IMG/VR virus record: IMGVR_UViG_3300027920_000641
Length of the DNA stretch: 64,000 nucleotides
Reading direction: 5' to 3' (one strand)
Origin: a virus
The translations under genes and the position numbers were made by a program. The first letter of the stretch is position 1. Each line of letters begins with the position of its first letter. Of this stretch, positions 6,317 through 29,416 are shown in pieces. The notes under the pieces are model-generated. The model ran no database searches. It was not told where the DNA came from and saw only the letters and a list, made by a program, of their open reading frames with translations.

Positions 6317-6775
6317 TTATCTTTCAAACTCTAAGCCTTCTTTTGCAATCACACTAATCCCTCTAGTTTTTGCCCATTTCAGCGCTCCTTGCCACTCTGT
6401 GTCAGTGAAGTCTCCATCGCTAGACACCCTAATTGATGGTATGAAGTTCCCCAAAACTAAGTACACCTTCATCACATATTCGTCATATGGTTTAAACGCA
6501 GTTTTACAACAAGTAAAGTACTCATTGTCTACCGTAAAATACCAACCGCTGTCTTTTGGGTTTGATGAGTACCAGCAGGTTTCGTGTCCATCTTCTCCCT
6601 TACCATTAAACCTGATTTCCTCTTTTGTTACCAGCGGTTTACTTGGGTCGTTATATTCGAGTTGCAGTATTTCCTTTTCCCAACCCTCCTCAATTACTTC
6701 CTTGAGTATCTCCAGTGCTTTATCTGGAATATCCTCTGGTTTCTTAGTGTTGTATAGATAGTGTGTGTAGCCCAT
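6317..6775 (-). CDS. hypothetical protein
   Basis: ORF track 152 aa. Confidence 0.55.
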   Translation of the reverse strand: MGYTHYLYNTKKPEDIPDKALEILKEVIEEGWEKEILQLEYNDPSKPLVTKEEIRFNGKGEDGHETCWYSSNPKDSGWYFTVDNEYFTCCKTAFKPYDEYVMKVYLVLGNFIPSIRVSSDGDFTDTEWQGALKWAKTRGISVIAKEGLEFER

Positions 6776-6784
6776 ATATTCTCC

Positions 6785-7087
6785 TTATTTAATTATTGTT
6801 TTGATACCGACCTCTGTCCAGTGCATGTCCCGCTCTATTCCTAGCCCAAACCGCCCGCGGTACGATTGCAATTCTTCTAGTGCGAATGATCCCCACTCAT
6901 CGTTATGATCTTTGAAGATAGATACATATCCAAAAAAGATTTGATCTTTTGGGTCATATTCGGTTGCATACCAGTCTCCAGCCCCAGTGGGGTTGAAAAA
7001 GTGAGCCACCACAATGGGGTTCTCTTTTCCTTCTTGATTACCGATCTTAGCAAATCTTTCTTCCAAGCCTTTTGTCATTAGTTTCAT
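6785..7087 (-). CDS. hypothetical protein
   Basis: ORF track 100 aa. Confidence 0.5.
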   Translation of the reverse strand: MKLMTKGLEERFAKIGNQEGKENPIVVAHFFNPTGAGDWYATEYDPKDQIFFGYVSIFKDHNDEWGSFALEELQSYRGRFGLGIERDMHWTEVGIKTIIK

Positions 7088-7380
7088 AAGACTCCTATCT
7101 TTTTTAATAGCCCTTGCTCCACAAAAGCTATGTGCCTACTTGGTACTTCTTTGTCAAATATCCTCTTGAAAGCAGATGTTTTAATCACTGCAATTGACCC
7201 AGTATTTTCTTCGATTAATAACACCCCCTTAGTCAAGTACTGTTCCCTACACTCATCGCGTGGTTCGGGTGTAACGGTGTGCATTTCGAAGGTTGGTTTT
7301 AATCTTCGATCCATGAGTAGCGTGCCAGTATCTTTTCTGCAAATCGGGCAAACCGCTAGTGTTACATAAGATTTCTCCAT
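7084..7380 (-). CDS. hypothetical protein
   Basis: ORF track 98 aa; GGGGGGAAGT-ATG RBS; promoter TTGACA-16-TATAGT upstream. Confidence 0.5.
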   Translation of the reverse strand: MEKSYVTLAVCPICRKDTGTLLMDRRLKPTFEMHTVTPEPRDECREQYLTKGVLLIEENTGSIAVIKTSAFKRIFDKEVPSRHIAFVEQGLLKKIGVL

Positions 7381-7400
7381 ACTTCCCCCCTTATTACTAT

Positions 7401-7428
7401 ACTATACTATATTCTCCACAATTGTCAA
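7401..7428 (-). promoter_or_regulatory. sigma70-type promoter (TTGACA-16-TATAGT)
   Basis: Reverse complement reads TTGACAattgtggagaatatagTATAGT; about 14-nt leader to the ATG at 7380. Confidence 0.5.
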
Positions 7429-7453
7429 TATATCTTTCTATATCAAACTATTC

Positions 7454-7624
7454 CTACAACAAATTGATGATGCTGTATTCCTCATTAATGTATTCGATAT
7501 TTGCAACATCTTCTGGGTGTATCTCTGCAAACTTATTTTTTGCATCTTCCAGATCGATTGCTTCTATGACTGCGAGTTCAAAGTCATGTTTATCGGTTTC
7601 CTTAACTCCAAAATAGTAGTTCAT
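7454..7624 (-). CDS. hypothetical small protein (56 aa)
   Basis: Self-translated MNYYFGVKETDKHDFELAV...; GGGGG RBS 5 nt before ATG; ATGA overlap with upstream gene. Confidence 0.4.
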   Translation of the reverse strand: MNYYFGVKETDKHDFELAVIEAIDLEDAKNKFAEIHPEDVANIEYINEEYSIINLL

Positions 7625-7788
7625 AGAACCCCCTTTGCTTCCTCAATTATTTTCATTACTATTGCCTGAGCAACTCCCTGCAAATCACTGGTGGTGTACT
7701 CATCTCGTTTATAAACTAAGTCGAGTATTTCATCTGTGTACTTCAATTCGATCATTACTTTTTTCAGTGCTTTTTCTTCTATTGTCAT
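7621..7788 (-). CDS. hypothetical small protein (55 aa)
   Basis: Self-translated MTIEEKALKKVMIELKY...; GGGGGGAATT-ATG motif. Confidence 0.4.
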   Translation of the reverse strand: MTIEEKALKKVMIELKYTDEILDLVYKRDEYTTSDLQGVAQAIVMKIIEEAKGVL

Positions 7789-7812
7789 AATTCCCCCCTT
7801 GTACTAACTTCT

Positions 7813-7841
7813 ATTATAGCACACTGAGTGTTATATGTCAA
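7813..7841 (-). promoter_or_regulatory. consensus sigma70 promoter (TTGACA-17-TATAAT)
   Basis: Reverse complement TTGACAtataacactcagtgtgcTATAAT; member of a repeated roughly 30-nt promoter family. Confidence 0.65.
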
Positions 7842-7844
7842 TAG

Positions 7845-8054
7845 TTATTTTCCCCCCATCTCGGTCGCTTCTACCAAATGGTTATAAGTACGCTTTTTTT
7901 CAATAGTAAACTCAAACCCGTTTATCATCTGCATAATTGTTGACACTGGTAGGCGGTACTCGTTGCCCTCATCATCAAAAACCCTCAATTGATTATTTGC
8001 GTACATTGTATTCAGTGTTTCAATAACAACTATTTTCTGACCCGCTATTTTCAT
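7845..8054 (-). CDS. hypothetical protein
   Basis: ORF track 69 aa. Confidence 0.45.
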   Translation of the reverse strand: MKIAGQKIVVIETLNTMYANNQLRVFDDEGNEYRLPVSTIMQMINGFEFTIEKKRTYNHLVEATEMGGK

Positions 8055-8056
8055 AA

Positions 8057-8215
8057 TTACTCCTCTTTATACTCCTCATACTCCTCTACTTCTTTTTTGA
8101 ATAGTTCTGGCTTATATGTGCCATTTGCTATATCAACCAGTGTTTCAATCGCATCAACCTCTGGGCTACTTGTACCCAACCATTTTTCTACCATTTCAAA
8201 AGTAACTTTGGTCAT
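8057..8215 (-). CDS. hypothetical small acidic protein (52 aa)
   Basis: Self-translated MTKVTFEMVEKWLG...; GGGGGAATT-ATG motif. Confidence 0.4.
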   Translation of the reverse strand: MTKVTFEMVEKWLGTSSPEVDAIETLVDIANGTYKPELFKKEVEEYEEYKEE

Positions 8216-8224
8216 AATTCCCCC

Positions 8225-8383
8225 TTATTCACTATCTTTATACGCTTCTGGCGAGGTAACTACTTCATGTTCAGTACTATCAACCTCCCCACTCATAACT
8301 AACTCGATTGCTCCTGCTTCATCTTTGGCTTCTACTCGTTCTGCTCTCATCTGGCAATCATAAACAACTGTAAAAAATGGCAT
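8225..8383 (-). CDS. hypothetical small protein (52 aa)
   Basis: Self-translated MPFFTVVYDCQMRAERVEAKDEAG...; AAAGGAAATT-ATG. Confidence 0.35.
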   Translation of the reverse strand: MPFFTVVYDCQMRAERVEAKDEAGAIELVMSGEVDSTEHEVVTSPEAYKDSE

Positions 8384-8397
8384 AATTTCCTTTCTAA

Positions 8398-8556
8398 TTA
8401 ACTATTGGCATTTAATATGTTCAACTCTTTTCTTATTTTTTCAACTAACTCATCTACCTCGTCTCCGTCTAGTGGTTCATTATCATTAAATGATAAGACT
8501 AATTTGTGTATTTTTTCTGCCGATGTCTTTGCGATCCAACTCTTGATATTCTTCAT
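8398..8556 (-). CDS. hypothetical small protein (52 aa)
   Basis: Self-translated MKNIKSWIAKTSAEK...; GGAGGAGGT-ATG RBS. Confidence 0.4.
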   Translation of the reverse strand: MKNIKSWIAKTSAEKIHKLVLSFNDNEPLDGDEVDELVEKIRKELNILNANS

Positions 8557-8702
8557 ACCTCCTCCGTATCGTATATTTCTACCGCGTACAGTCCGTTCTT
8601 GATTGCGAAGTCAACTCTCTTTAGTGCTTCTGCTTCATTTTCCGCTTCTGGGTGTTCATCAAGCGTGATATCGATAAAGTATCTGATCATTTTTTTCTTC
8701 AT
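8553..8702 (-). CDS. hypothetical small protein (49 aa)
   Basis: Self-translated MKKKMIRYFIDITLDEHPEAE...; G6 RBS; ATGA overlap. Confidence 0.35.
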   Translation of the reverse strand: MKKKMIRYFIDITLDEHPEAENEAEALKRVDFAIKNGLYAVEIYDTEEV

Positions 8703-8728
8703 ATTTTCTGCCCCCCTTTATATCTTCT

Positions 8729-8757
8729 ATTATAACATACTGTCTGTTATATGTCAA
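8729..8757 (-). promoter_or_regulatory. consensus sigma70 promoter (TTGACA-17-TATAAT)
   Basis: Reverse complement TTGACAtataacagacagtatgtTATAAT. Confidence 0.65.
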
Positions 8758-8766
8758 GCATCATTT

Positions 8767-8946
8767 CTAAGTAACTTTTTTTGTTTTTTCCCTATCAATT
8801 AATAATTCCGAGTCAACTAGCTTGTAGACTTGCTCCATAATTCCATCGACTGTTTGATCTGCTAACTCGTGCTGTAAAGTCTTAATAAGTCTTGACCTGA
8901 TCACGATGTTTCTAGACAATAGTTTCTGCATTTCTGGCGTGTTCAT
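8767..8946 (-). CDS. hypothetical small protein (59 aa)
   Basis: Internal start MNTPEM of track ORF 8767..9018; GGGAGATT-ATG; ATGA overlap with upstream gene stop. Confidence 0.4.
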   Translation of the reverse strand: MNTPEMQKLLSRNIVIRSRLIKTLQHELADQTVDGIMEQVYKLVDSELLIDREKTKKVT

Positions 8947-9263
8947 AATCTCCCATCTCCCAAGTCCTCCCAGATCTCCGCTAGTAAATCCATATCTGGG
9001 TACTCGGTACACTTGCAAACTACTTTGCCCGTCTGTTGTCTATATCCCCCGTATGGGTATCTGTTCTCTTGCCAGAATGGTACAATCTCGTGGTATTTCC
9101 CCGTATTTAGTACAATCAACCCTCCCCAATCTCCCGCACTACTCATGGTGTCCATGTACTCGACTCTTACAACCGCTTTATACTTTCCAAATATGTCCTT
9201 AGCATCGTACCAACCAAGCCCTCCCTGTTCCCATTTTCTGTCTAGTAGGTGTTTAATTGTCAT
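8943..9263 (-). CDS. hypothetical protein
   Basis: ORF track 106 aa. Confidence 0.5.
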   Translation of the reverse strand: MTIKHLLDRKWEQGGLGWYDAKDIFGKYKAVVRVEYMDTMSSAGDWGGLIVLNTGKYHEIVPFWQENRYPYGGYRQQTGKVVCKCTEYPDMDLLAEIWEDLGDGRL

Positions 9264-9337
9264 AGTCCTCCCGTGCTACTTGATACTATTCGTTCCAATT
9301 TCCAATAACTTTATTTACAGCTCCCATATATTCCCCC

Positions 9338-9514
9338 TTATGCTACTAAGCTTTTTACAATTTCAATTGCGTCTGCATCTTGTTCTAACCATTGTTGGAG
9401 TAGCAATAGCATTTCAAACTTGGCTAGCTTCTTCACTTGTGCTTGTGCATCGCTCCAGTTCCCGTTGACATAGTTATCTATGATTGCTTGCCATTTTTCA
9501 TATCTTGTTGGCAT
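9338..9514 (-). CDS. hypothetical small protein (58 aa)
   Basis: Internal ATG (MPTRYEKW) of the track ORF, preceded by GGGGGAATT-ATG. Confidence 0.45.
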   Translation of the reverse strand: MPTRYEKWQAIIDNYVNGNWSDAQAQVKKLAKFEMLLLLQQWLEQDADAIEIVKSLVA

Positions 9515-9524
9515 AATTCCCCCT

Positions 9525-9701
9525 TTATATTTCAAAATACGTATATCCTAAAAGACCATTTTCTACTTTTTTAAAGTGTTTTTTTAACTCGACAATATAT
9601 TCTTGACTTAATCCTCCTGTACAGATACTTATATTATTTCCACCCGCTCTTTTAATTGAGTTCTTAACATACCTGACTGTTTTTTTAATTCCTAGCTTCA
9701 T
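9525..9701 (-). CDS. hypothetical small basic protein (58 aa)
   Basis: Self-translated MKLGIKKTVRYVKNSIKRAGG...; G8 run upstream of ATG; coordinates approximate. Confidence 0.3.
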   Translation of the reverse strand: MKLGIKKTVRYVKNSIKRAGGNNISICTGGLSQEYIVELKKHFKKVENGLLGYTYFEI

Positions 9702-9713
9702 GCCCCCCCCTTA

Positions 9714-9926
9714 TTACACAATACAATTGTCTGCTACTTTGGTCTTGTTGATTGCTCCCCCTTTGTTTAACCAACCATCTGAGATTAGAGCCTGAGCAGT
9801 TCTCCCGTAACTACCTTGGAGTTCCCAAGCACGTCCACTTTTTACTAAGAATGAAAAAAGCTTGAGTGTCTGGAGGTCTGATAGTTCCCCCGCTTCATAT
9901 GCTATTATTTGATCTAGTAGTGTCAT
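9714..9926 (-). CDS. hypothetical protein (70 aa)
   Basis: Internal start MTLLDQ of the track ORF, preceded by GGGGGGCAAGTT-ATG; the longer form would overlap the upstream gene. Confidence 0.45.
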   Translation of the reverse strand: MTLLDQIIAYEAGELSDLQTLKLFSFLVKSGRAWELQGSYGRTAQALISDGWLNKGGAINKTKVADNCIV

Positions 9927-9951
9927 AACTTGCCCCCCTTTATTACTTATT

Positions 9952-9980
9952 ATTATAACATACCGTGTGCTATATGTCAA
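9952..9980 (-). promoter_or_regulatory. consensus sigma70 promoter (TTGACA-17-TATAAT)
   Basis: Reverse complement TTGACAtatagcacacggtatgtTATAAT. Confidence 0.65.
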
Positions 9981-9987
9981 GTCCAAT

Positions 9988-10638
9988 TTAGCCCGCAAAC
10001 CTGTATTGGAGTGGTACACCTGATTTGATGTATTTCTTAGCTTGTTCCAGATGCTTTTTGTGTTTCTCCTCGATGTCATAATCGACCACCGACTGTGCTT
10101 CTTTTAGGGTATCGTCATACCCGTAATACCCCCAACACGAGTCGACACTTTTCCCCTCTGGATCATTTACCATGTAACCATATACATCGCCACTGATATA
10201 TTGATCGAACGTCTTGACCTCGTTCTCGGCTATTCTCTTAGCATCTGCAATCAGTTTCTTTGTTACCCTCTTGGTGTTCCAATTCTTGCGTATGTCCTCT
10301 TTGGTAACTACAATCCAACCCACTTGCCCACTATCCCATCGATCCGAAAACGGGTAACATCTCATCGTGATCCCGCTATGTTCATAGACAAAAAGTGGTA
10401 AAATAACTGCAATCTCCCCAACCGTCTCAGTGATCCAACCCACGAATGAGTCGTAATCGTCGACATACATGGTGTCCCCGTGTTTATCGCTGTAATAACT
10501 CTCTGGTATGATCGTATCGCCAAGTGTCCAGTTTCTTGACCTGTAATACATTGTTGCCAAGTTATCCCAGTCTCTCGGCGTCATATCGCTAGTATCTTGT
10601 TTAATCTCTATGGTATAACCTCTGTATTCTTCTTGCAT
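9988..10638 (-). CDS. hypothetical protein
   Basis: ORF track 216 aa; GGGGGGAATT-ATG. Confidence 0.55.
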   Translation of the reverse strand: MQEEYRGYTIEIKQDTSDMTPRDWDNLATMYYRSRNWTLGDTIIPESYYSDKHGDTMYVDDYDSFVGWITETVGEIAVILPLFVYEHSGITMRCYPFSDRWDSGQVGWIVVTKEDIRKNWNTKRVTKKLIADAKRIAENEVKTFDQYISGDVYGYMVNDPEGKSVDSCWGYYGYDDTLKEAQSVVDYDIEEKHKKHLEQAKKYIKSGVPLQYRFAG

Positions 10639-10647
10639 AATTCCCCC

Positions 10648-10998
10648 CTATTTAATTTTTACTTGTGAAGACTCAATATACTCAATTTCTTTGATTGCAT
10701 CTTGTAAAGCGTCCTCTTTGTTTGCCCTAGCTATATTTAGTGTGTTTTGCCACAAAAAACTCCCCTTACTATCCGTGCATCTAACTATTGCTTGATACAC
10801 TGGTTTACCTATTCCAATTGCTCTGGTGTGTGGTGTTAGCATGTCCCCCCCCTGCTTGGTGCAGTACTCTACCGCATCAACTATGTTACTAAAATACTTT
10901 GGTATTACTAAATCCAGCCCGTACACGGCGTAAAACTTTTCTGTTCCCTCTACCCCCATGAACAGCTTATAATCTTTGATGAAGTCAATTAGTATCAT
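10648..10998 (-). CDS. hypothetical protein
   Basis: ORF track 116 aa; preceded by the conserved leader element ggtagcaagtag..agggggacatc-ATG. Confidence 0.5.
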   Translation of the reverse strand: MILIDFIKDYKLFMGVEGTEKFYAVYGLDLVIPKYFSNIVDAVEYCTKQGGDMLTPHTRAIGIGKPVYQAIVRCTDSKGSFLWQNTLNIARANKEDALQDAIKEIEYIESSQVKIK

Positions 10999-11014
10999 GA
11001 TGTCCCCCTCTTTA

Positions 11015-11066
11015 CTACTTGCTACCGTGAGCGGGTCATTACAACCCGCCCCCGCTAGTAACTAGC
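11015..11066 (-). promoter_or_regulatory. conserved double-hairpin leader element, copy 1
   Basis: The palindrome gctagtaactagc plus the hairpin gcgggt-N7-acccgc plus a conserved ctacttgctacc leader; a near-identical copy lies at 12709-12758. Confidence 0.45.
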
Positions 11067-11613
11067 CTATTTGGTAGTGTCTAACCGTGAACGGGTTATA
11101 TCCCTCAACCTTGGTACTATTCAGCTTTTCAACATCTAGATTGACTTGATCGAACGTGTTGACGTCTGGATTTTTGATCCCCGCAACTGCTAGCTTAATT
11201 GTCTCATCAAGTATCGGCAAAACTTCATCTGGTTTCGCCCCGCAATAGGTGCAAATTGCCGTTGCTTCAATTCTCATGAATTGATATAACCTACTGTATA
11301 AATACTTGCGTTGCTCGGTTGTGAATAATTCCCAGTTATCGGATATCCAACTACACAACCCGCCCAAGTCCTCGACCTTGTAAAAACTCCTGACTTTAAA
11401 CTTGCAGAACCCATCGGTTTGATCGAGTAACATAATGTCGTGATATGTTCCCGCGTGTGGTTTATTTAATTTCCCCGTTTTTGGATTGATCGATTGAGTA
11501 ACCCCGCGAAAACCCTTGTTGGCTTTAAACTCGACCCAGAAAAACATACTAGTTCGTAATCGCCCGTATGGGTAGTCAGTTACCTCTACTTTTTTTGTAC
11601 TATGCTGTAGCAT
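11062..11613 (-). CDS. hypothetical protein
   Basis: ORF track 183 aa; GGGGGAAATT-ATG. Confidence 0.55.
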   Translation of the reverse strand: MLQHSTKKVEVTDYPYGRLRTSMFFWVEFKANKGFRGVTQSINPKTGKLNKPHAGTYHDIMLLDQTDGFCKFKVRSFYKVEDLGGLCSWISDNWELFTTEQRKYLYSRLYQFMRIEATAICTYCGAKPDEVLPILDETIKLAVAGIKNPDVNTFDQVNLDVEKLNSTKVEGYNPFTVRHYQIG

Positions 11614-11660
11614 AATTTCCCCCTTGCTATTTTATTACTATTCTTGACTAATTATCTCTA

Positions 11661-11689
11661 ATTCTAGCATACCGAGTGTTATAAGTCAA
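11661..11689 (-). promoter_or_regulatory. sigma70-type promoter (TTGACT-17-TAGAAT)
   Basis: Reverse complement TTGACTtataacactcggtatgcTAGAAT, the same family as 7813/8729/9952. Confidence 0.5.
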
Positions 11690-11708
11690 TAGGTATTTCT
11701 ATATCAAA

Positions 11709-12191
11709 CTATCTCATTTCAAAAATGATTTCTACATCACACAACCCACCGCAACCCAAATTGTCCCGCGTTTTTCTTGACAAATCCGCCACCCTACCAT
11801 GGCGTGCAAATCCGCCTGTATCAGTTACTATCGCCGTCGTGGTTGCCCCCGTTTCCGTGTTTTTGATAGTAACCTGCTTGTTGAGTAGCTTGTACTTGCG
11901 TACCGTCTCGGGTACAAGTGCAATTGTAGCCTTGTTGTCATCTAGTTTTTCCCCGTTCGCCATGATCAACCCATCATTGCAACCCAAACAGCCACCAGTC
12001 CAGTAGTAGGACGCTTGACCCCTGACAGTCAATGGTGCAATGGTAGGCGTCGGCGTAGGTGTAGCCGTTGGCGTTGGCGTAACCTCTACGGTCTCAGCTT
12101 GTGCCACTTGTGCCATTGGTTCGCGTTCCCGTGCAACCTGCAGACCACCAAGGCACAACCCCACCCCAACCAGTACAATTTCTATTTTCAT
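11709..12191 (-). CDS. secreted 3D-domain (MltA/YabE/Rpf-type) protein with TPTP linker
   Basis: Signal peptide MKIEIVLVGVGLCLGGLQVA, (TP)n linker, C-terminal KATIALVPETV...TDTGGFARHGRVADLS matching the 3D-domain pattern. Confidence 0.5.
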   Translation of the reverse strand: MKIEIVLVGVGLCLGGLQVAREREPMAQVAQAETVEVTPTPTATPTPTPTIAPLTVRGQASYYWTGGCLGCNDGLIMANGEKLDDNKATIALVPETVRKYKLLNKQVTIKNTETGATTTAIVTDTGGFARHGRVADLSRKTRDNLGCGGLCDVEIIFEMR

Positions 12192-12265
12192 ACATTCTTT
12201 GCTACTTGCTCGAGTAGTTTTGTGGCTTTTTTAACTTGCATAAGTTCCCCCCTTTATACTTGATA

Positions 12266-12498: not shown

Positions 12499-12693
12499 TT
12501 ACTTGCCTACTAGATCCCAATTATGAGTTACACCCAGAGATTGCCAATATGCGATACTCTCACACTCGTATATCTGTTTCTTGAGCGTGCATATATCGCG
12601 GTTATTCGCCAACCACGTATTACGTTGATTGATTGGATCAAACCCGCCAAGCTTGCATAGTTCTGCAACCGTTAGCCGTGTATAGTGTCTCAT
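12499..12693 (-). CDS. hypothetical protein
   Basis: ORF track 64 aa; preceded by the conserved leader element copy 2. Confidence 0.45.
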   Translation of the reverse strand: MRHYTRLTVAELCKLGGFDPINQRNTWLANNRDICTLKKQIYECESIAYWQSLGVTHNWDLVGK

Positions 12694-12708
12694 GATGTCC
12701 CCCTTCTG

Positions 12709-12758
12709 CTACTTGCTACCATAAGCGGGTACGGATACCCGCCTAGCTAGTAACTAGC
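12709..12758 (-). promoter_or_regulatory. conserved double-hairpin leader element, copy 2
   Basis: ctacttgctacc + gcgggta-cgga-tacccgc hairpin + gctagtaactagc palindrome. Confidence 0.45.
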
Positions 12759-13321: not shown

Positions 13322-13432
13322 GCTGTCCCCCCTCTTGTAATTATTACGTAAGCCGTTGTAGTGGCTCATTTTAGGCTTTTTACTTGTTTGATATCTTATA
13401 CTGCTAGTTTTAAATTGTAAGCCGTTCTGGTG

Positions 13433-13486
13433 CTATCTAGTAGCTATCTAGTACTTGTCTAGTGTTATCTAGTACTTTGCTAGTGG
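13433..13486. repeat. iteron-like array: 5 direct repeats YTRTCTAGTRS at 10-11-bp phasing
   Basis: ctatctagtag / ctatctagtac / ttgtctagtg / ttatctagtac / tttgctagtgg in tandem; a further ctgctagtt copy at about 13401. Confidence 0.6.
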
Positions 13487-13770
13487 CTTAGATGTACACC
13501 AGTTCCCGCCTATCTGGGTTGTCTGGGTTTTTTTGTGAATGTGCGTGTCTGCTGTCTATTATGGGGATAACAAGCAGATTGTAAACTAGATCTTACTGTA
13601 TCAAACTGTATCATTTGTAGTCAGTTTTCAATTACTTATGCTATTCAGTCGTGCAATTGATAATTATTAAGCCGTTATAGATACGCACTCGAGGTGGATT
13701 GGATCGTATAAGATATATTATGCGACGTAGTGTGCATAGTACTACATACGCGACATGGGTATATATTACT

Positions 13771-13964
13771 TGCGTGCGTGCGTGCATGCCCCTGCTACAG
13801 GGGGGAGGGGGGGTACTACCTCGAGCGTCCAGAGGAAACTATATCTATCTATATCAGAATATATCACCCCCCGCACAGGGGGAAGGGGGTAAAGCCCAAG
13901 CTTATTGTATAAGTCCTGGACGGGATATGTGTCACATCTGGATATGGGGGGGCACCCCCCCATG
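13771..13964. promoter_or_regulatory. GC-rich structured island: (TGCG)3 tract plus three C-run/G-run hairpins with flanking G-runs
   Basis: tgcgtgcgtgcgtgc; CCCCTGctaCAGGGGGgaGGGGGGG; CCCCCCgcacaGGGGGaaGGGGG; GGGGGGGcaCCCCCCC; predicted ORFs in this region are probably spurious. Confidence 0.55.
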
Positions 13965-14014
13965 GTACAAAAAGCCTAAATATTATTGAACTCAAAAAAT
14001 TTTTTGAAAAATTT

Positions 14015-15050: not shown

Positions 15051-15079
15051 TTGACATTTGCGACATTGTCTGTTATAAT
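15051..15079 (+). promoter_or_regulatory. consensus sigma70 promoter (TTGACA-17-TATAAT)
   Basis: TTGACAtttgcgacattgtctgtTATAAT; the predicted TSS coincides with the ATG at 15087 (leaderless). Confidence 0.6.
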
Positions 15080-15086
15080 TACTGGT

Positions 15087-15524
15087 ATGATTAAAATATT
15101 TCCTCAAGTAGAACAGAAAATAGTAACTCTATATGTTAAAAAGAAGCTTTCTTGTAGAGAAATTAAGGAAGAACTTGGTTTAAACATCTCTGTTCGCCAG
15201 ATACAGAGGCGTTTGGGGAAACTAGGAGTGATTCGCAAGCCTGGAGAGGCATTTGCACTAGCTGTTGCCCAGGGAAAAGTGACTTATTACCGCAAGCCGA
15301 AGTCTTTAAATGCCCCAAAAACGGTTCTTTCTACTCTACAGCGGCACAGAGTACTTAGTAGAGATGAATTCAGGTGTCAAGACTGTGGAAATAAGGTTGA
15401 AGATGGTATTCGACTAGAAGTTGTTTTTAAAAATGGGAATATATTGGATAAGCGAGATGAGAATCTTCATTCTTTGTGTAATTTGTGTAGACTTGGTAGA
15501 CAACGGAGTGAAACTGCCTATTGA
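15087..15524 (+). CDS. HTH-domain protein with degenerate HNH-like zinc finger
   Basis: LSCREIKEELGLNISVRQIQRRL HTH; C-terminal CQDCGN...LHSLCNLCR; track ORF trimmed to the first ATG downstream of the promoter. Confidence 0.45.
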   Translation: MIKIFPQVEQKIVTLYVKKKLSCREIKEELGLNISVRQIQRRLGKLGVIRKPGEAFALAVAQGKVTYYRKPKSLNAPKTVLSTLQRHRVLSRDEFRCQDCGNKVEDGIRLEVVFKNGNILDKRDENLHSLCNLCRLGRQRSETAY

Positions 15525-16658: not shown

Positions 16659-16886
16659 ATGCCAACAGATACATTTCGAAAAGCGTACACGGAGTTAACC
16701 GATTTACAGAAAGAAAACGTGGCTGTTATTAAGGAAGCCGCTGTTATCTTGGAGGAGGAATTCAACCATGCCGTTCCAACTGATGAAAGAAGTGAGCGAA
16801 GCCGCTGCATGGCCATTGCTAGAACTAATTTAGAACAAGCTATTATGTGGGCAATCAAGGGTGTTACTACTCCAAGTGAAAAATAA
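16659..16886 (+). CDS. hypothetical protein
   Basis: ORF track 75 aa; AAAGGAGCTT-ATG. Confidence 0.5.
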   Translation: MPTDTFRKAYTELTDLQKENVAVIKEAAVILEEEFNHAVPTDERSERSRCMAIARTNLEQAIMWAIKGVTTPSEK

Positions 16887-17046
16887 GCTCATTAAACTAC
16901 TAGGTGGGTATACTGAGGAAGAGGTAGAAAAAATGATCTTTTCCGCTCTTTGTAAATACAAGTTAATCAAAATGCTCAAGAAAAACAACGGAACTGATAA
17001 ATTACCAGACTACGATACTTTTACTGATGGAATGAGGGAGAGATGA
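16861..17046 (+). CDS. hypothetical small protein
   Basis: ORF track 61 aa; possible start at the internal Met (16933) after GAGGAAGAGG. Confidence 0.35.
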   Translation: MLLLQVKNKLIKLLGGYTEEEVEKMIFSALCKYKLIKMLKKNNGTDKLPDYDTFTDGMRER

Positions 17047-18260
17047 AAACATTTTGTTTTGGAACACCAGACGAGGGAGCTTTAACCCAAGCACGTAATT
17101 GCGAAGCGGAAGCAGAAAAGATAATTCTAATGGCTGATAACCATAAAGGCTATGGTATGCCAGTTGGAGGCGTGGCTGTCTACAAAAATAAGGTAAGTCC
17201 AGCAGGTGTGGGATTTGATATATCTTGTGGTAATAAAGCGGTCAAGCTCGATATTGATTATGATTCTATTAAAGACAGATTACCAGAATTAGCAGGTCAG
17301 ATATGGGAAAATCTCTCATTTGGCATTGGTAGAAAGAATGAAACCCCAGTATCACACGACTTATTTAACGACCCATCGTGGCAAGAGGTTGACTTTTTGA
17401 GAGAAAGACCTGAGTTAAAATTAAAAGCAGAACAACAGTTAGGTACAATCGGTTCAGGCAATCATTATGTAGATGTGTTTAGGGATGAAAACAATCAAGT
17501 TTGGGTTGGTGTTCATTTTGGTAGTAGGGGATTCGGACACACTATTGCTTCTCATTTTATGCAGTTAGCTGGTGACAATCCAAATATTATGGATGAGACA
17601 CCCCACACACTGTCTCTCGATACAAAAGAGGGGCAAGACTATTTTAGGGCTATGGAGTTAGCAGGTAGATACGCTTATGCTGGGCGTGATTGGGTATGTG
17701 AAACAGTTGCTAATATCTTGGGTGGAAAGATAGTTGATGAGGTTCACAATCATCACAACTACGCTTGGAAAGAAACACATGGTGGAATTGAGTATGTGGT
17801 TGTGAGAAAAGGTGCTACTCCTGCATTTCCTGGTCAAAAGGGATTTGTTGGTTCAACTATGGGTGGTGTTTCAGTAATTATTGAGGGAGTGGATAGTGAG
17901 AGATCAAAAGAAGCATTTTATTCTGCTATGCACGGGGCTGGTAGGGTTATGAGTCGAACTCAGGCTGCTGGCAAGTGGAAAAAATCAGTTGAAACTAGAA
18001 CTAAGCCAGATGGAACTGAATATCAGTTTAAGAAAAGAGTGAGAACTCAAGGGCTGGTCGATTGGGATAAAGTAAAAGCTGAATTGATTGGAAAAGGGAT
18101 TATTCTCAAAGGTGGTGGGGTAGATGAAGCCCCAGAAGCATATAAGAATCTTGAGGAAGTCTTAGAGTTACATAAAGGAACTATCAACATTTTACACAGA
18201 TTAACACCACTAATTGTGTGTATGGCTGGTAGTGACGAGTTTGACCCGTACCAAGACTAG
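17043..18260 (+). CDS. rtcB: RtcB RNA 3'-phosphate/2',3'-cyclic-phosphate ligase
   Basis: GTIGSGNHYVDVFRDENNQVWVGVHFGSRGFG and SAMHGAGRVMSRT are near-identical to E. coli RtcB motifs (GTLGTGNHFIEI...HSGSRGIG; HGAGRVMSRT); 405 aa versus 408 aa. Confidence 0.9.
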   Translation: MKTFCFGTPDEGALTQARNCEAEAEKIILMADNHKGYGMPVGGVAVYKNKVSPAGVGFDISCGNKAVKLDIDYDSIKDRLPELAGQIWENLSFGIGRKNETPVSHDLFNDPSWQEVDFLRERPELKLKAEQQLGTIGSGNHYVDVFRDENNQVWVGVHFGSRGFGHTIASHFMQLAGDNPNIMDETPHTLSLDTKEGQDYFRAMELAGRYAYAGRDWVCETVANILGGKIVDEVHNHHNYAWKETHGGIEYVVVRKGATPAFPGQKGFVGSTMGGVSVIIEGVDSERSKEAFYSAMHGAGRVMSRTQAAGKWKKSVETRTKPDGTEYQFKKRVRTQGLVDWDKVKAELIGKGIILKGGGVDEAPEAYKNLEEVLELHKGTINILHRLTPLIVCMAGSDEFDPYQD

Positions 18261-20513: not shown

Positions 20514-20694
20514 TGATTTAGACGACTTATCGCCGACAGATAGTGAGGAATTGGACAGACTACTTAGCCCAGATGTCTTCTTCTGCAGATTTTGTGGAGA
20601 AGAGCTAGTTGGAGAAATGGTGCTTTTTAATCATGAGAAATGGTGCGGTAAGCCAGATGAGCTACCGAAAAAGACACTTGACAAAGATGTATAA
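20506..20694 (+). CDS. small zinc-finger protein
   Basis: CRFCGE...HEKWC C2HC pattern. Confidence 0.45.
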   Translation: MNDDLDDLSPTDSEELDRLLSPDVFFCRFCGEELVGEMVLFNHEKWCGKPDELPKKTLDKDV

Positions 20695-20714
20695 TATGGT
20701 ATAGTATAGAGAAT

Positions 20715-20915
20715 ATGGGAGTTCACAAAAGCGACTCATTTCCTTCATATAACATGTCTCCAACATCGGAGATAACAGAAATAATTTTGTTTGTTACGAT
20801 TTACGCAGGAGTTACGATTTGGTCTTTACTATCGGGGTATTTTATGCTTTTTTTCTGGATGCTAATTCCTCCAATTCTTTTCTTCTCCTGGTTATATAAA
20901 ATCCGCCATCCGTAG
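20715..20915 (+). CDS. small membrane protein
   Basis: ORF track 66 aa, 2 hydrophobic helices. Confidence 0.4.
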   Translation: MGVHKSDSFPSYNMSPTSEITEIILFVTIYAGVTIWSLLSGYFMLFFWMLIPPILFFSWLYKIRHP

Positions 20916-20961: not shown

Positions 20962-21180
20962 ATGGCGAGAATTATCATTTCCCTTACGGACGAACTTTTA
21001 GAAGAGCTTAACGAGTATACTCAGCGTAGATCTTATAATCGTTCAGAGTGTATTCGTCATGCTATTAGGAATCTTATTCAGGAAGGAGTAATGTATGCAG
21101 TTCCTCAAAAAAATATTTCAGAAAAAGCTAACAATGTCAGATCTTTCAATTCAGAGGGATTGGGAGTTAGTAACTCGTAG
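20962..21180 (+). CDS. ribbon-helix-helix (CopG/Arc-like) DNA-binding protein
   Basis: MARIIISLTDELLEELNEYTQRRSYNRSECIRHAIRNLIQEG is a typical RHH fold signature. Confidence 0.6.
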   Translation: MARIIISLTDELLEELNEYTQRRSYNRSECIRHAIRNLIQEGVMYAVPQKNISEKANNVRSFNSEGLGVSNS

Positions 21181-21451
21181 CTACGCACCGCCTCGCAAAG
21201 ACCTAGCTGGTCTTAACTTGTCTGAGGAGTTAGCTCAAAAGGCTATTTGTGGAGTAACTACCTACCTATGGCAAGACAGAAACTCAGGCGATTTACGCAA
21301 GGAAGAAATGCTCGGGAATGATTCAGACGAACTTGCTGAACTTGTAGAGAAGGTTGAGAGATCTGGAATGCAGTATATCAAACTCAATGGCAATGTATAT
21401 GCTATTGCTAAATGGGTGCCGTCTAACGATCAGACAGTTCCTTTGAAATAA
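21134..21451 (+). CDS. hypothetical protein
   Basis: Track ORF 21095..21451; start moved to the internal Met to limit overlap with the RHH gene. Confidence 0.4.
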   Translation: MSDLSIQRDWELVTRSYAPPRKDLAGLNLSEELAQKAICGVTTYLWQDRNSGDLRKEEMLGNDSDELAELVEKVERSGMQYIKLNGNVYAIAKWVPSNDQTVPLK

Positions 21452-21455
21452 CATT

Positions 21456-22004
21456 ATGGGAGAACCAGTTGTACTAGATGTAACTGATAGTCATAAGCTT
21501 GTTAAAACTGACGTGCCTACGCGCAAGGGTGGTAAGAAGCCGAAGACGATGACCATGACCTCAAAAGATGGCAAGATTATCGAGGTTGAAGTAACCGAGT
21601 TATTCATGCGCGAATATCTTAAAAATGGTGGAAACGCTACCGCCGCCATAAGGAAAATCTTGCCAGAAACTCAGGCCGCTACCGCTGCCCAGCTGGGTTC
21701 GCATTATCTTGGCCAGGCTAAAAAAAGAGGTCTTTTTAGGGTTATTATCGAAAAGAAGGGCTATCATCTTGGGAAGCTAATGGATGTGGCGCTTGAGAAA
21801 ATGGATGAGTCTAAAAGACCAGACTGGTGGGACCGCATTATGAAGCTAGGCGGATATGAGGACTTCACTCCAGCTGGGGGGAATCAGACGGCCGTTACAG
21901 TGACCGCTAATATCTTTGAGGCCCACAGAAAAATCAAATCAGACTATGTTGATGGAGAAGTAGAAGATATTGAAAATCCTGCCGATAATGAAGATAAATT
22001 ATAA
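21456..22004 (+). CDS. terS: terminase small subunit
   Basis: FMREYLKNGGNATAAIRK matches the TerS (Terminase_2) helix-turn-helix signature; immediately upstream of TerL. Confidence 0.65.
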   Translation: MGEPVVLDVTDSHKLVKTDVPTRKGGKKPKTMTMTSKDGKIIEVEVTELFMREYLKNGGNATAAIRKILPETQAATAAQLGSHYLGQAKKRGLFRVIIEKKGYHLGKLMDVALEKMDESKRPDWWDRIMKLGGYEDFTPAGGNQTAVTVTANIFEAHRKIKSDYVDGEVEDIENPADNEDKL

Positions 22005-23911: not shown

Positions 23912-23993
23912 AATAATTTAGGTTGTTGACATGTTGAATTGTAGTATGATAGTGTCCTTTGACATAGGTTGATCAGAGAAACAATCTCGGTTT

Positions 23994-24047
23994 ACCGACC
24001 AATACAACTCTCAAGAATAGTAGGGTTTTCCGTGGTCGGTTTTTTTG
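23994..24047 (+). terminator. putative intrinsic terminator (8-bp stem, long loop, T7 tract)
   Basis: accgacca ... tggtcggttttttt upstream of the portal gene; coordinates approximate. Confidence 0.35.
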
Positions 24048-24063
24048 TACCTATAGGTTTTTT

Positions 24064-26217
24064 ATGGCTGTAGCTGACAAAAGTAAATCAAAAAACAAAG
24101 AAGGTCAAATATTCACTGACGTTAAACGTCATATGGAACTTGGCTTTCAGGAGACTGATAGGCGAACCACGGGTAAGAACCGTATCGGAGCTATTTCATT
24201 TAACGAAGCAGATGAGCTTTTCCGCTCATGGTTAGATGAGGCCTCCTGGCCATACGACGCCCTGTTATTTGATCCTCGCATTTTTACTTTCATTTTCGAA
24301 AAGACTTCAAGATTAATTTCTAATAAACCAAAGGGCAAGCTGACTCCTAGAGAGGGCTCAGATATGCTTTCTGCCAAAATTAATAATTCTCTTCTGGATT
24401 TCCAATGGGATAATTCTAATATTGGTGGCACCATGCTTTCAAAATGGTCATTAATGGATATTAATGCCCGCAAGTATGGTTCATCTTTCGCGCTTGTTCC
24501 ATGGAGATATGAGACGGATGATAGAGACCGCACTGTTTTCGATGGTCCAGACATGAAGGTTCTGAACAACAGAGATATAGCTCATGACCTTTCTGCCACC
24601 GCTATCGAGAACTGTAACTGGTTCCAGGTTCGCCAATATGTAACGTTCCAAGACTTGCAAAATGTTAACGATGCTGCCCGCACTGGTCCAGTGTACAAGA
24701 ATCTAGATGTCCTTAAGGAGAAGGTTTCTACCGCAGAAGTCCATGGTGGAGAGAATGGTGGAGATACTAGATCAGTCAACTGGTTATCAAGGAATCGATC
24801 CATCTCTGGTTTGGAATTAGATCCAGTCGGCAAAGATCCTGTTTTCAGGACAATTGAAATAGTAACCGAGTATCGTAGAAATCGCTGGATAACTATTGCT
24901 CCAAAACACGGAGTGGTTATTAGAGATATCGAGAACCCATACCAGAATAATGAAATCCCTATTGTCATGTTGCGTTACTATCAAATAGATGATGACCTTT
25001 ATGGTCTAAGTGAGATAGAGCCAATTAAGGGGTTACAGAAAGCTATTAACGCTCTTCTATGCCAGTATGTTGATGAGATCAATCAGAAACTCTATTCCCC
25101 TATTGCCATTGGGCCAGGAGTTCGACAACACACTCTGGAGTGGGGAAAAGGCGCTCGTTGGATAATGAACAACCCAATGCAGGATTTCAGAATTGTTGAG
25201 TCTAGATCAGATGCTGCTCAGTACTTCAACAATACCTATGGAGTTTTAGTTAATGCCATGATGACTGCCCTTGGGGAATCATCACTTGGAGTTTCTAACA
25301 CACAACCATACCAGACAGATAAGACTGCTACCGAGGTTAAGGCTCTTCAACTTCAGCGTAACGCCAGAGACAATTATAACCAGATTTTCTTGGGTGAGGC
25401 AATCAAACGCCAATATATGCTATGGCATTCAATGAACCAAGCTCTTTTATTCTCTGATCCAAAAACTGCTCACTATATTATCAGAATTAGTGGAAGTGAC
25501 GCACTTAGATATTTCCAAGAACGTGGTTTAGATAAGATGTCTTTCGATGCAGACATTGCTGGAACTCAATTCGAGACAGAGAACATCCTCGGTATTAGAA
25601 AAGACCCAGAGAAGGTGCTGTCAAACAGTATGCTTCCAGTCTATCCTATTGCCATTGAGGAAGAAGGAACAACCCGCTTTGAGCCAAAGTTGAAGCTAGA
25701 GCAGGGAACCAGCAGAAGCGGACAATTATATGTTACGCCAGATGATCTGAAGGGTGTTTTTGACTTTTCGATTGACGTTCAATCTATGCAGGTTTCTGCT
25801 GATGAAGAGCAAAAGCAGGGAAGACAGCAGGCTATCCAAATGATCAGCACTAATCCAAATGTAATTCAAATGCTTCAATCAGAAGGTGTCAAGCCGAAGT
25901 TCAAAGACTTATTTGTCCAATGGTTAGAAGACCTGGGATTCCCAGATGCCGATAGGTTTTTTGAGAGTGCTGGTCAAGGCGCTGCTGAGGGCGGTGACCC
26001 AATGGCTGCTATCAAAGAAGCAATGGCTAAGGCGGGTGGCGGCGCAGAGGAAGCTGGGGCACCACCAACAGATACTGTCCCCTCTGGTATACCAGGAGGA
26101 ACTAATCCTAACGCAGGTGGGGAAGCTCCACAAGCAACTCCATTTGCAGTAAATAGGGATTCTGGGCAAGGGCTAGGTCCGATAAGTCCAAAGTCATTAG
26201 GAGAAATGGGAGCATAA
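24064..26217 (+). CDS. putative portal protein
   Basis: 717 aa, position directly after the terminase genes, Gly/Ala/Pro-rich acidic C-terminal tail; no motif verification possible. Confidence 0.55.
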   Translation: MAVADKSKSKNKEGQIFTDVKRHMELGFQETDRRTTGKNRIGAISFNEADELFRSWLDEASWPYDALLFDPRIFTFIFEKTSRLISNKPKGKLTPREGSDMLSAKINNSLLDFQWDNSNIGGTMLSKWSLMDINARKYGSSFALVPWRYETDDRDRTVFDGPDMKVLNNRDIAHDLSATAIENCNWFQVRQYVTFQDLQNVNDAARTGPVYKNLDVLKEKVSTAEVHGGENGGDTRSVNWLSRNRSISGLELDPVGKDPVFRTIEIVTEYRRNRWITIAPKHGVVIRDIENPYQNNEIPIVMLRYYQIDDDLYGLSEIEPIKGLQKAINALLCQYVDEINQKLYSPIAIGPGVRQHTLEWGKGARWIMNNPMQDFRIVESRSDAAQYFNNTYGVLVNAMMTALGESSLGVSNTQPYQTDKTATEVKALQLQRNARDNYNQIFLGEAIKRQYMLWHSMNQALLFSDPKTAHYIIRISGSDALRYFQERGLDKMSFDADIAGTQFETENILGIRKDPEKVLSNSMLPVYPIAIEEEGTTRFEPKLKLEQGTSRSGQLYVTPDDLKGVFDFSIDVQSMQVSADEEQKQGRQQAIQMISTNPNVIQMLQSEGVKPKFKDLFVQWLEDLGFPDADRFFESAGQGAAEGGDPMAAIKEAMAKAGGGAEEAGAPPTDTVPSGIPGGTNPNAGGEAPQATPFAVNRDSGQGLGPISPKSLGEMGA

Positions 26218-27910: not shown

Positions 27911-27938
27911 TTGACTTACTTAAATTATGGCGTATAAT
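27911..27938 (+). promoter_or_regulatory. sigma70-type promoter (TTGACT-16-TATAAT) for the LAGLIDADG gene
   Basis: TTGACTtacttaaattatggcgTATAAT; the ATG at 27949 sits at the predicted TSS. Confidence 0.55.
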
Positions 27939-27948
27939 AGTAGCCATA

Positions 27949-28464
27949 ATGAGTGACAATAGTCAAGATATTACAATGGGCAATCAGCAGGAAAGACTGC
28001 TCTTTAAGATTGGATACCTCATAGGTATCATCGATGGAGAAGGATCTTGCCAGTTTGGATATAAATATCTTTATAAAGGATGTAAGGTTTTTACTCCTAA
28101 AATAACTATTTATAATACCAACCCAGCAATCATTCTTCAAACGAAAACATTCTTGGACGAATTGGGTTTTTCTTATTACTGTTACGCCACAAAAATGCAT
28201 GGGAAAGAACAGTGGCTAGGATGGAGAGTAGAATTAATAGGTTTGAAAAGAATCAAAGAATTGACAGATCTATTGCTACCATATCCAAGCGGTAAAAAAG
28301 AAAGATTGCAGGTGCTGAATGATTTTTGCACCTACAGATTGTCTAAGAATAAAGAAAAATATGCAGAAGAGGACCAAAAATATTTTATAAAGTTGCGCGA
28401 TTTGAATCGACTTTATAGGGGAAAAAGAGCAGAATCCTCAGAGACTACACGCTTCACGGTTTAG
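27949..28464 (+). CDS. LAGLIDADG homing endonuclease (single-motif)
   Basis: KIGYLIGIIDGEGSC is a LAGLIDADG motif; 171 aa; alternative start 27976. Confidence 0.75.
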   Translation: MSDNSQDITMGNQQERLLFKIGYLIGIIDGEGSCQFGYKYLYKGCKVFTPKITIYNTNPAIILQTKTFLDELGFSYYCYATKMHGKEQWLGWRVELIGLKRIKELTDLLLPYPSGKKERLQVLNDFCTYRLSKNKEKYAEEDQKYFIKLRDLNRLYRGKRAESSETTRFTV

Positions 28465-28659
28465 CGCCGATGATATAGTCCGAACTCCATCGAAATATGG
28501 AGACTGAACAAGAAATTAGTTCAGAGTATCAAATAACATTGATATATCAACAATTTTGCTTATCACTTATCAGGACGCTGCAAGACGCGAGGATTTACTT
28601 GACGTTATTGGAGATGTTTCACCAGATAAAGTTTAGTCTGGCACTAGGTTTAATTATGA

Positions 28660-28688
28660 TTGACAAGTTAATAGGGCAGTGATACACT
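28660..28688 (+). promoter_or_regulatory. sigma70-type promoter (TTGACA-17-TACACT) for the HNH gene
   Basis: TTGACAagttaatagggcagtgaTACACT; ATG 28695 at the predicted TSS. Confidence 0.5.
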
Positions 28689-28694
28689 ACACAA

Positions 28695-29201
28695 ATGACT
28701 ACTGTCTCAGGTGTATGTGCACAATGCGGAGTTTTTTTTACGGCTTTTAATCGTAAGGAATCTAAGAATTCTTTTTGTAATCAAAAATGTTATTTTGCAT
28801 TCAAAAGATTACACAGACCAGAAGCAAACTGTATTTGTGAATGGTGTCAAGAAAAATTCTATAGAAAACAATCCGCTATCAAGAATGGAGAAGGAAAATT
28901 CTGTTCAAGAAAATGCAAACATACAGCACAAAGAGAAGGTATAATTATTAGGGGAGAGTCATACAACGATAGACACTTGATTAGGCAATCATCAGCTTAT
29001 AAGAGCTGGAGAGCAGCAGCTAAGAAACTTAAAGGTAATCGTTGTGAAAAGTGCGGTGCAGAGGAAGGTAAAAAGTGTGATTGTTGCGGATATATAATTT
29101 ATCTGCATGTTCATCACATTAAACCATTCTCAACATACCCAGAACTTAGATTCGATCCATCTAATGCTTCTGTATTGTGTCCTAAATGTCATCATAATTG
29201 A
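28695..29201 (+). CDS. HNH homing endonuclease
   Basis: Zinc ribbons (FCNQKC, GKFCSRKC) followed by the HVHHIKPFSTYPELRFDPSNASVLCPKCHH HNH motif. Confidence 0.8.
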   Translation: MTTVSGVCAQCGVFFTAFNRKESKNSFCNQKCYFAFKRLHRPEANCICEWCQEKFYRKQSAIKNGEGKFCSRKCKHTAQREGIIIRGESYNDRHLIRQSSAYKSWRAAAKKLKGNRCEKCGAEEGKKCDCCGYIIYLHVHHIKPFSTYPELRFDPSNASVLCPKCHHN

Positions 29202-29416
29202 GCGGGTGAAAAATAATTAGAGGTGAATTGCTGGAAAGTCCAGAAAGGATAATCAGCAGCCAAGCCAAGGAATTGCGAAAGGTTCTTGGAAGGTTCGACG
29301 GTCAGGACTGAGGAAACAATAATGTCCACAAGTGCCTCTCCCGAAAGGGAAGATATGACCTGAACTATACGGTTGAACGCATAGAAGCAAGAAATAGAAA
29401 ACTTGCGATAACACAA

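Follow-up and report, generated by a model that had tools for sequence, protein, structure and literature searches.

Why does a phage repeat one promoter, spacer included, along an array of small genes? The question is raised by a stretch of 64,000 nucleotides (nt) from an uncultivated phage, IMG/VR record IMGVR_UViG_3300027920_000641 (the window), in which a preliminary description had listed five minus-strand sites between 7401 and 11689, said to carry exact −35 and −10 hexamers at 17-bp spacing on a shared scaffold of roughly 30 nt. We scanned both strands of the window for promoters, read the minus strand of 7300–11800 directly, and compared the region with strain variants and more distant relatives. 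We consider it likely from the sequence that the repeated element is a promoter cassette read by the primary-sigma RNA polymerase of the host, and that its copies double as recombination linkers.

A four-copy family of probable promoters in the small-gene array

All five listed sites are promoter-like. The exact consensus, claimed for every one of them, is present in three (7813–7841, 8729–8757 and 9952–9980); the site at 11661–11689 reads TTGACT/TAGAAT, and that at 7401–7428 has a 16-bp spacer and TATAGT. A repeat search independently grouped 7795–7842, 8711–8758, 9934–9981 and 11643–11690 into a single four-copy family of 48 nt (D2). These four copies, here termed class A, all have 17-bp spacers with a mean pairwise identity of 0.79, a similarity reached in 0 of 20,000 random draws. 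Because the site at 7401–7428 lacks the class-A spacer, its own being unrelated, and matches a plus-strand site at 20678–20705 (TTGACA-N16-TATAGTATAG) at 17 of 19 positions from −20 to −2, these two were treated as a second class, class B (Table 1). The single scaffold is real for four sites in the window, and the earlier figure of at least five was an overstatement.

Exact TTGACA-N17-TATAAT occurs four times in the window (three minus-strand sites and one plus-strand site), compared with 0.00 in 100 dinucleotide shuffles of the window and with about 0.03 by our own analytic estimate. At low stringency, by contrast, 46 promoter-like sites were found where 42.8 were expected, so that only the top-scoring sites are meaningful. 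The two-strand scan that had been proposed does make these stand out, and it added an exact site at 15051–15079 on the plus strand, although it gave no enrichment below the top scores.

Within the class-A spacer, the first 7 nt (TATAACA) have a pairwise identity of 0.93 and the central four bases one of 54%, while the 40 nt upstream of the copies stand at 0.33, which equals background. A TG extended −10 is found in all four copies, preceded by TA or TG so as to read TRTGn, and AAAT occupies −46 to −43 in all four; conservation outside −35 to −7 drops to background. A weight matrix built from the four copies detected no fifth copy in the 64 kb, the next-best score being that of 15051–15079 (17 bits, compared with about 42 for the family), and there are no consensus promoters in the 10 kb past the right end of the window. 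The exact scaffold pattern has 0 matches in IMG/VR; a looser pattern retrieved 40 single-copy matches on unrelated contigs from metagenomes, and no multi-copy relative.

On the minus strand, from 13321 down to 1, small genes with G-run ribosome sites form a tight array, whereas the plus strand from 15087 carries RtcB, Acb2/Tad1-like, RHH and packaging genes, the portal gene, an SU10-type capsid gene and glycosyltransferases. Most array junctions between 7 and 13.4 kb are overlaps or gaps of less than 15 nt; the class-A copies lie in much wider gaps (Table 1), as does the class-B site at 7401–7428 (73 nt). Class-A copies are co-oriented with the genes downstream of them. A G-run had been placed 15–40 nt downstream; measured from the −10 hexamer, it lies at 10, 14, 12, 13 and 37 nt for the five listed sites, the class-A copies accounting for 12–37 nt. 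Because the class-A copies sit in gaps, point the same way as the genes and precede G-runs by these distances, they are very probably functional promoters for the primary-sigma polymerase of the host. Strong promoters for host RNA polymerase, as the preliminary description had it, are indeed the best reading of the whole anatomy (hexamers, spacing, TG, A-tract, gaps and orientation). Its word 'early' draws on the layout; judging from this and from a parallel with phiEco32-like phages, the class-A promoters probably do act early. The sequence family and its placement are seen directly; promoter activity, early timing and the reason for spacer conservation are inferred.

The proteins of the array have no homologs in relatives and, apart from a DUF7417 match for gene 9714–9926, no Pfam match; by this comparison the array region is a hyperplastic ORFan region, with genes unconserved in relatives. 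Within the 74 kb covered, neither a phage sigma factor nor a homolog of gp79 came to light. A virion RNA polymerase would overturn the host-polymerase-early reading, and a 2110-aa protein encoded downstream was considered for that role; it matches only 'internal virion protein'.

Table 1. Promoter-like sites and associated elements of the window
Feature	Position	Strand	Sequence	Context
Class-A promoter	7813–7841	−	TTGACA tataacactcagtgtgc TATAAT	Exact; TG extended −10; heads genes 7621–7788 and 7454–7624; gap 56 nt
Class-A promoter	8729–8757	−	TTGACA tataacagacagtatgt TATAAT	Exact; dyad 9/10 complementary; heads five genes of 49–69 aa, 8553–8702 down to 7845–8054; gap 64 nt
Class-A promoter	9952–9980	−	TTGACA tatagcacacggtatgt TATAAT	Exact; identical in strain L091; heads DUF7417 gene 9714–9926 and genes after it; gap 61 nt
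Class-A promoter, degenerate	11661–11689	−	TTGACT tataacactcggtatgc TAGAAT	10/12; retains A−11 and T−7; heads gene 11062–11613 and genes after it; gap 95 nt
21-bp dyad	7815–7835; 8731–8751; 9954–9974; 11663–11683		TATARCAnnC-N-GnnTGYTATA	Spans −29 to −9 of each class-A promoter
Class-B promoter-like site	7401–7428	−	TTGACA-N16-TATAGT(ATAG)	11/12; off the class-A scaffold; heads genes 7084–7380, 6785–7087 and 6317–6775
Class-B twin	20678–20705	+	TTGACA aagatgtataatatgg TATAGT ATAG	Upstream of 20715–20915 and of RHH gene 20962–21180
Exact promoter	15051–15079	+	TTGACA-N17-TATAAT	Fourth exact site; where two gene arrays diverge
Upstream element	7435–7451	−	ATAGTTTGATATAGAAA	17 nt; 3′ end 6–7 nt upstream of −35

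Strain variants differ by whole modules

Strain L091, a contig from SRR32414321, was compared with the window over 13888–3319; the two are 94.6–99% identical and differ by four indels. L091 has five class-A promoters, one more than the window. Two of its copies (6944–6972 and 8424–8452) enclose a 1.48-kb block, comprising six ORFan genes, that the window lacks, and the window promoter at 7813–7841 consists of the left L091 copy with its upstream flank up to TGCTATAATAG, followed by the downstream flank of the right copy. This one module indel bounded by two copies is observed directly; its sequence bears the signature expected of homologous recombination between two copies of the cassette, the crossover having fallen inside TGCTATAATAG.

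Strain variants (window compared with L012 and L091) differ elsewhere, too, by entire mini-genes. A 58-aa gene at 9525–9701 is absent from both L012 and L091, with its junction in the G-runs of ribosome-binding sites, and at 9264–9337 and 12192–12265 the window has two deletion scars with tiny remnant open reading frames (ORFs), in places that carry 722 nt and 347 nt of additional genes in L091. L012, L014 and L015 are 98.6–99.9% identical and hence too close to inform on the promoters.

The L091 ortholog of the copy ending at 11689 reads TTGACT tatagcactcggtatgt TATAAT. It departs from the window copy at three positions in 29 nt, compared with 0.64 expected at 2.2% divergence, and all three are family-variable positions, each altered to a base that other copies have there. 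Such clustering is compatible with either patchy gene conversion or selection.

We propose that host primary-sigma (sigma70/sigmaA-type) RNA polymerase would read one cassette of about 30 nt, with four copies in the window and five in L091. Each cassette, lying in a gap of 56–95 nt, would head a short operon, two to five tiny ORFan genes in length, with a leader of about 20–45 nt that closes with a G-run ribosome site. Promoter strength would come from stacked elements, namely an A-tract at −46 to −43 (an UP-like position), TTGACA, the 17-bp spacer, TRTGn and TATAAT. The copies would be alike mainly through common descent and continued recombination among themselves, and would serve as homologous linkers for gaining or losing blocks of mini-genes, with added selection for a strong AT-rich spacer. 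That the 5′ spacer is conserved because the copies are copy-and-recombine linkers undergoing concerted evolution is quite possible, and we advance this part tentatively.

The phage and its relatives

One sample contains two contigs, of 61.9 and 38.2 kb, from which a genome size of about 100 kb follows. Near-identical contigs are present in JGI samples 3300027913, 3300027923 and 3300027924 and in several SRA runs; a literature search on the sample accessions found no paper. Megablast of the region and tblastn of the portal protein against 50,697 phage records returned no match. The capsid, portal and adaptor genes are of the SU10 type (SU10_MCP, SU10_portal-type and SU10_adaptor), and no T4-like matches were found. 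Rfam and tRNA scans of the window were negative.

A relative with 66% portal identity, IMGVR_UViG_3300009285_003312 (L017), has the same layout, with a leftward small-gene array and a five-copy cassette of its own, TTGACA-NNN-TTGACA-ACTTATGN-TATAAT, the spacer of which differs from that in the window. Two of the L017 copies are identical from −35 to −10 and have unrelated flanks. The promoter family of L017 (8492–13292) has two −35-like hexamers in tandem, 3 nt apart, and in one copy both hexamers are altered alike (TTGACG atc TTGACG compared with TTGACA cgc TTGACA), which hints that the tandem hexamers are kept identical. Another relative, L002, has a different repeated pair. On a further contig, encoding a 73%-identical homolog of the 183-aa protein whose gene lies below the 11689 copy, the same place is occupied by TTGACA-N17-TACAAT with an unrelated spacer. 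As far as these sequences tell, the promoter architecture recurs in relatives and the spacer is genome-specific, except for the extended −10.

Spacers that differ from one relative to the next also bear on the RHH protein encoded at 20962–21180, which had been named as a possible spacer binder. It matches Pfam RHH_1, and its nearest solved structure is the NikR N-terminal domain. It is 44–64% conserved and syntenic with packaging genes in all nine portal relatives having sequence there; only one of these nine has visible early promoters, and its spacer differs. Conservation of the RHH protein across relatives with a differing spacer argues against it as the reader of a phage-specific spacer, and we found no support for that role. 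The two ORFs that follow it (118 and 182 aa; 20962–22004 on the plus strand including RHH) are likewise conserved, being syntenic directly upstream of a terminase-like gene in ten of ten portal relatives. All three are probably part of a packaging or late module rather than early-gene regulators.

What keeps the spacer alike

The TRTGn element, that is, TATGn or TGTGn directly before the −10 (Voskuil & Chambliss 2002 as cited in PMC2613000), is present in all four class-A copies, and takes up the six 3′ positions of the 17 in the spacer. It therefore explains just the 3′ third of the conserved spacer. The 5′ part, TATAACA at −29 to −23, is the reverse complement of TGTTATA and mirrors the extended −10, giving a 21-bp dyad (Table 1) whose right half is the TRTGn element plus the start of the −10 and whose left half is its mirror image. 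The dyad pattern is confined to the four class-A sites in 64 kb (0.22 expected), with 8, 9, 8 and 6 of 10 positions complementary in the four copies. Among the seven distinct family sequences of the window and L091, 80% of cells are complementary in register, compared with 21–59% when slid; covariation was absent in the same seven sequences, with 439 of 500 shuffles scoring as high. From the sequence, the dyad would be a symmetric site for a protein, or else it would arise as a by-product of the extended −10.

The preliminary description had entertained a conserved spacer-binding regulator, for which we found no support; six of the 17 spacer positions belong to TRTGn. In its more specific form, the dyad would be an operator: a dimeric phage or host protein would bind TATARCA half-sites and switch the class-A promoters off, or on, together. 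The 6–9 of 10 complementarity, the single register and the confinement to class-A promoters speak for this. The left-half invariants (ATA-CA--C) exactly mirror those of the right half, the variable positions −25 and −13 are symmetry partners, and conservation stops sharply at the promoter edges; a dimeric binder would predict mirrored invariants. RNA polymerase has no known specific contact at −29 to −23, or indeed anywhere upstream of −15 (PMC2613000), each related phage has its own spacer, as a phage-specific regulator predicts, and the operators of P22 Arc and plasmid CopG overlap their promoters (PMC2724298). However, the right half is already accounted for by TRTGn and TATA, so that the dyad comes down to one left half of 7–10 nt in mutually related copies, effectively one observation; no stand-alone dyad exists elsewhere in the 64 kb, the conserved spacer of L017 is not a dyad, and the sole named candidate is the RHH protein that is syntenic with the packaging genes. 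In the metagenome matches, the free positions of TATANCA/TGNTA are complementary in 10 of 30 distinct matches compared with 25% expected, which is no signal. We regard an operator as unlikely, and judge no differently the variant in which a phage-specific dimeric protein would read the mirrored TATARCA and either shut off the class-A promoters jointly or target recombination to them. Were it true, each phage of the lineage would carry a private promoter-plus-operator linker 'dialect' for regulating or swapping early mini-gene modules.

A spacer that is simply the optimum for host polymerase in DNA shape, AT content and extended −10, whether converged upon or retained, would need neither regulator nor recombination. 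It accounts for the six 3′ positions, AT-rich spacers do increase promoter activity (PMC2613000), and the 40 metagenome matches, most with exact TTGACA/TATAAT, include several that are very close, for example TTGACATATAACATCTCGTATGTTATAAT; by our estimate, such matches are also compatible with chance among very many strong promoters. L017 and the 73%-identical ortholog context have unrelated spacers with equally good hexamers, the exact promoter at 15051, though part of this very genome, departs from class A in its 5′ spacer, and the cassette-bounded module indel is left unexplained, all of which makes this reading rather improbable, a shade below the operator. More improbable by far is a composite of promoter and terminator like the promoter-early stem-loop (PeSL) elements of T4-type phages, in which the inverted repeat would form a stem-loop terminating or attenuating upstream transcription. 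One PeSL subclass does have a stem-loop between −35 and −10 or overlapping −10 (PMC2839356), which is where the inverted repeat lies here. Yet the class-A dyad is AT-rich and folds weakly as RNA (−3.5, −5.7, −5.8 and 0 kcal/mol, with z-scores of −0.7 to −2.8 and of +1.1), shows no compensatory changes and is followed by no T-run, and a terminator scan found nothing at the class-A sites; stable hairpins stand as separate cassettes at 10996–11066 and 12691–12758. Weak folding without a T-run means that the dyad is not a hairpin terminator, and together the folding and covariation tests largely refute that reading.

Several points weigh against host-read promoters that double as linkers. Cassette-bounded indels make up one of the four between the strains; of the remaining three, one joins two G-runs of ribosome-binding sites (window 9526–9705) and two lie at short intragenic homologies. 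A deletion of this kind is possible with any direct repeat, and a linker role may be a by-product. Position −21 of the 11689 copy is unconverted, so that the changes there do not make up a clean single conversion tract. Homology ends sharply at −35 and −10, and the left-half invariant positions exactly mirror those of the right half; the sharp edges fit linkers because the flanks come from different modules, although they fit an operator too. Of five sigma70 promoters predicted in phage 7-11, only two were validated (PMC8948821). Identity between the capsid protein and that of any isolate reaches 31% at most, and the sequence examined covers about 74 kb of the genome of about 100 kb, some 26 kb lying outside it.

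The window provides a clean set of candidate promoters, natural and very strong, from a lineage of uncultivated phages whose genome measures about 100 kb. Should the proposed reading be right, the PeSL idea would extend past T4-type phages, with repeated early-promoter cassettes both driving ORFan mini-genes and acting as crossover points. The practical value is modest, as promoter parts and as a marker of early gene module boundaries in metagenomic phage genomes. A new biological question would arise only if a spacer-binding factor were found, and the importance would rise with a dedicated shuffling mechanism.

Class B, the 15051 promoter and an upstream element

The upstream element ATAGTTTGATATAGAAA, which precedes the class-B site at 7401–7428, has a second exact copy at 11696–11712, upstream of the 11689 promoter, so that it accompanies one class-B and one class-A promoter. 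A search returned two exact and three weak copies compared with 0.52 expected; it is possibly an UP-like element or a factor site. A diverged copy lies ahead of a weaker promoter, TTTACA-N16-CATAAT, at 13585–13558.

The spacer of the promoter at 15051–15079 is unlike that of class A in its 5′ part, yet has the same 3′ part, GTnTGTTATAAT. The ATG at 15087 of a 145-aa ORF (promoter and ORF together, 15051–15524, plus strand) follows this promoter by only 7 nt, with no ribosome site, which makes the transcript a candidate leaderless mRNA. As a regulator, this ORF was set aside, having no Pfam or PDB match and only a weak PHROG match to an HNH endonuclease. Back to back with the promoter is a minus-strand promoter-like site at 15051–15023, ATGATA-N17-TATACT with TG, which shares the motif TCTGTTATA. 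Further along the plus strand, at 16659–16886, a 75-aa protein matches the Acb2/Tad1 hairpin domain of the anti-CBASS/anti-Thoeris sponge family (E 3e-13), just upstream of the RtcB RNA ligase gene at 17043–18260; together the two genes suggest a counter-defence cluster, positioned downstream of the promoter at 15051.

Other elements of the window

The minus-strand gaps 10996–11066 and 12691–12758 share a cassette of about 65 nt, composed of GCTAGTtACTAGC and a GCGGGT-loop-ACCCGC hairpin followed by GGTAGCAAGTAG..GGGGGACATCATG. The two fold at −25.2 and −23.3 kcal/mol (z −4.3 and −2.7) and have no T-run. They could be RNA processing, stabilising or attenuator elements, like the lone stem-loop half of a PeSL.

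Upstream of the array, 13370–14010 is a non-coding stretch of 640 nt with a G7-TG-C7 palindrome at about 13940–13962, further C-run/G-run pairs, a short (CACG)n run and five or six 11-nt repeats of the ACTAGATA type at 13420–13490. This stretch may serve as an origin or control region, or mark a genome end. Within the 174-aa ORF at 626–1150 on the minus strand, a 15-nt unit is repeated in tandem about 16–23 times over 681–1025, giving a five-residue protein repeat. The JGI contig Ga0268731_1000140 ends a few hundred bases beyond the left end of the window.

Between the terminase-side genes and the portal gene (23926–24066, plus strand) lies a TTGACA-containing promoter-like site, followed after about 65 nt by a hairpin (ACCGACCA...TGGTCGGT) and T7 that end just before an ATG at 24064. 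From this ATG the reading frame runs on into the portal ORF, listed from 24364, and extends it. L002 has the same layout at 9560–9690. The element could encode a small RNA of about 100 nt or act as a terminator/promoter unit. The SU10-type major capsid gene (29417–30247, plus strand) matches its Pfam profile only from position 24; upstream of it, within 27911–30247, are a LAGLIDADG-like ORF (27949–28464), an HNH ORF (28695–29201) and about 215 nt of non-coding sequence that looks structured. One or more introns or homing-endonuclease insertions may interrupt the capsid gene; Rfam at the gathering threshold showed no intron.

Comparison with known systems

Repeated consensus early-promoter cassettes in an ORFan region are a known design in phages, and the present array is a clean example rather than a new one. 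The closest likeness is to the PeSL cassettes of T4-type phages (Arbiol et al. 2010, PMC2839356; Comeau et al. 2014, PMC4122927). In both, a repeated motif matches the sigma70 consensus, is A/T-rich in its upstream part and carries a Shine–Dalgarno sequence and start codon at the 3′ end; copies are concentrated in the hyperplastic ORFan region; and two copies bound indels between close relatives, with the crossover between −10 and Shine–Dalgarno sequence (here TGCTATAATAG). By contrast, the class-A cassette has no stable stem-loop or terminator, the strong hairpins sitting in separate intergenic cassettes; the phage is of the SU10 type, not a T4-type myovirus; and there is one cassette-bounded indel only. 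Lacking the stable stem-loop and the T4-type phage, the class-A cassette was not filed as a PeSL.

The promoter-rich host-takeover module of the Bacillus phage SPO1 (Stewart et al. 1998, summarised in PMC6873191) also resembles the class-A array. There is no relationship in sequence between the two. A spacer scaffold common to several promoters is not known from SPO1.

In phiEco32-like phages, a diverse early cluster of unknown function lies opposite the late genes and is served by host sigma70 promoters (PMC8948821). phiEco32 and 7-11 share with the present phage the SU10/phiEco32-type capsid gene family and a cluster, early in those phages and probably so here, opposed to the late structural one; 7-11, however, has two promoters at the genome end that give long transcripts, whereas here several copies are spread through the array. 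P22 Arc at Pant/Pmnt and CopG at Pcr (PMC2724298) offer the counterpart for the dyad; here too a dyad of about 21 bp sits inside a core promoter, and the phage encodes an RHH-family protein. The differences are that the site here is a putative operator, that the RHH gene tracks the packaging module and that half of the dyad is the extended −10.

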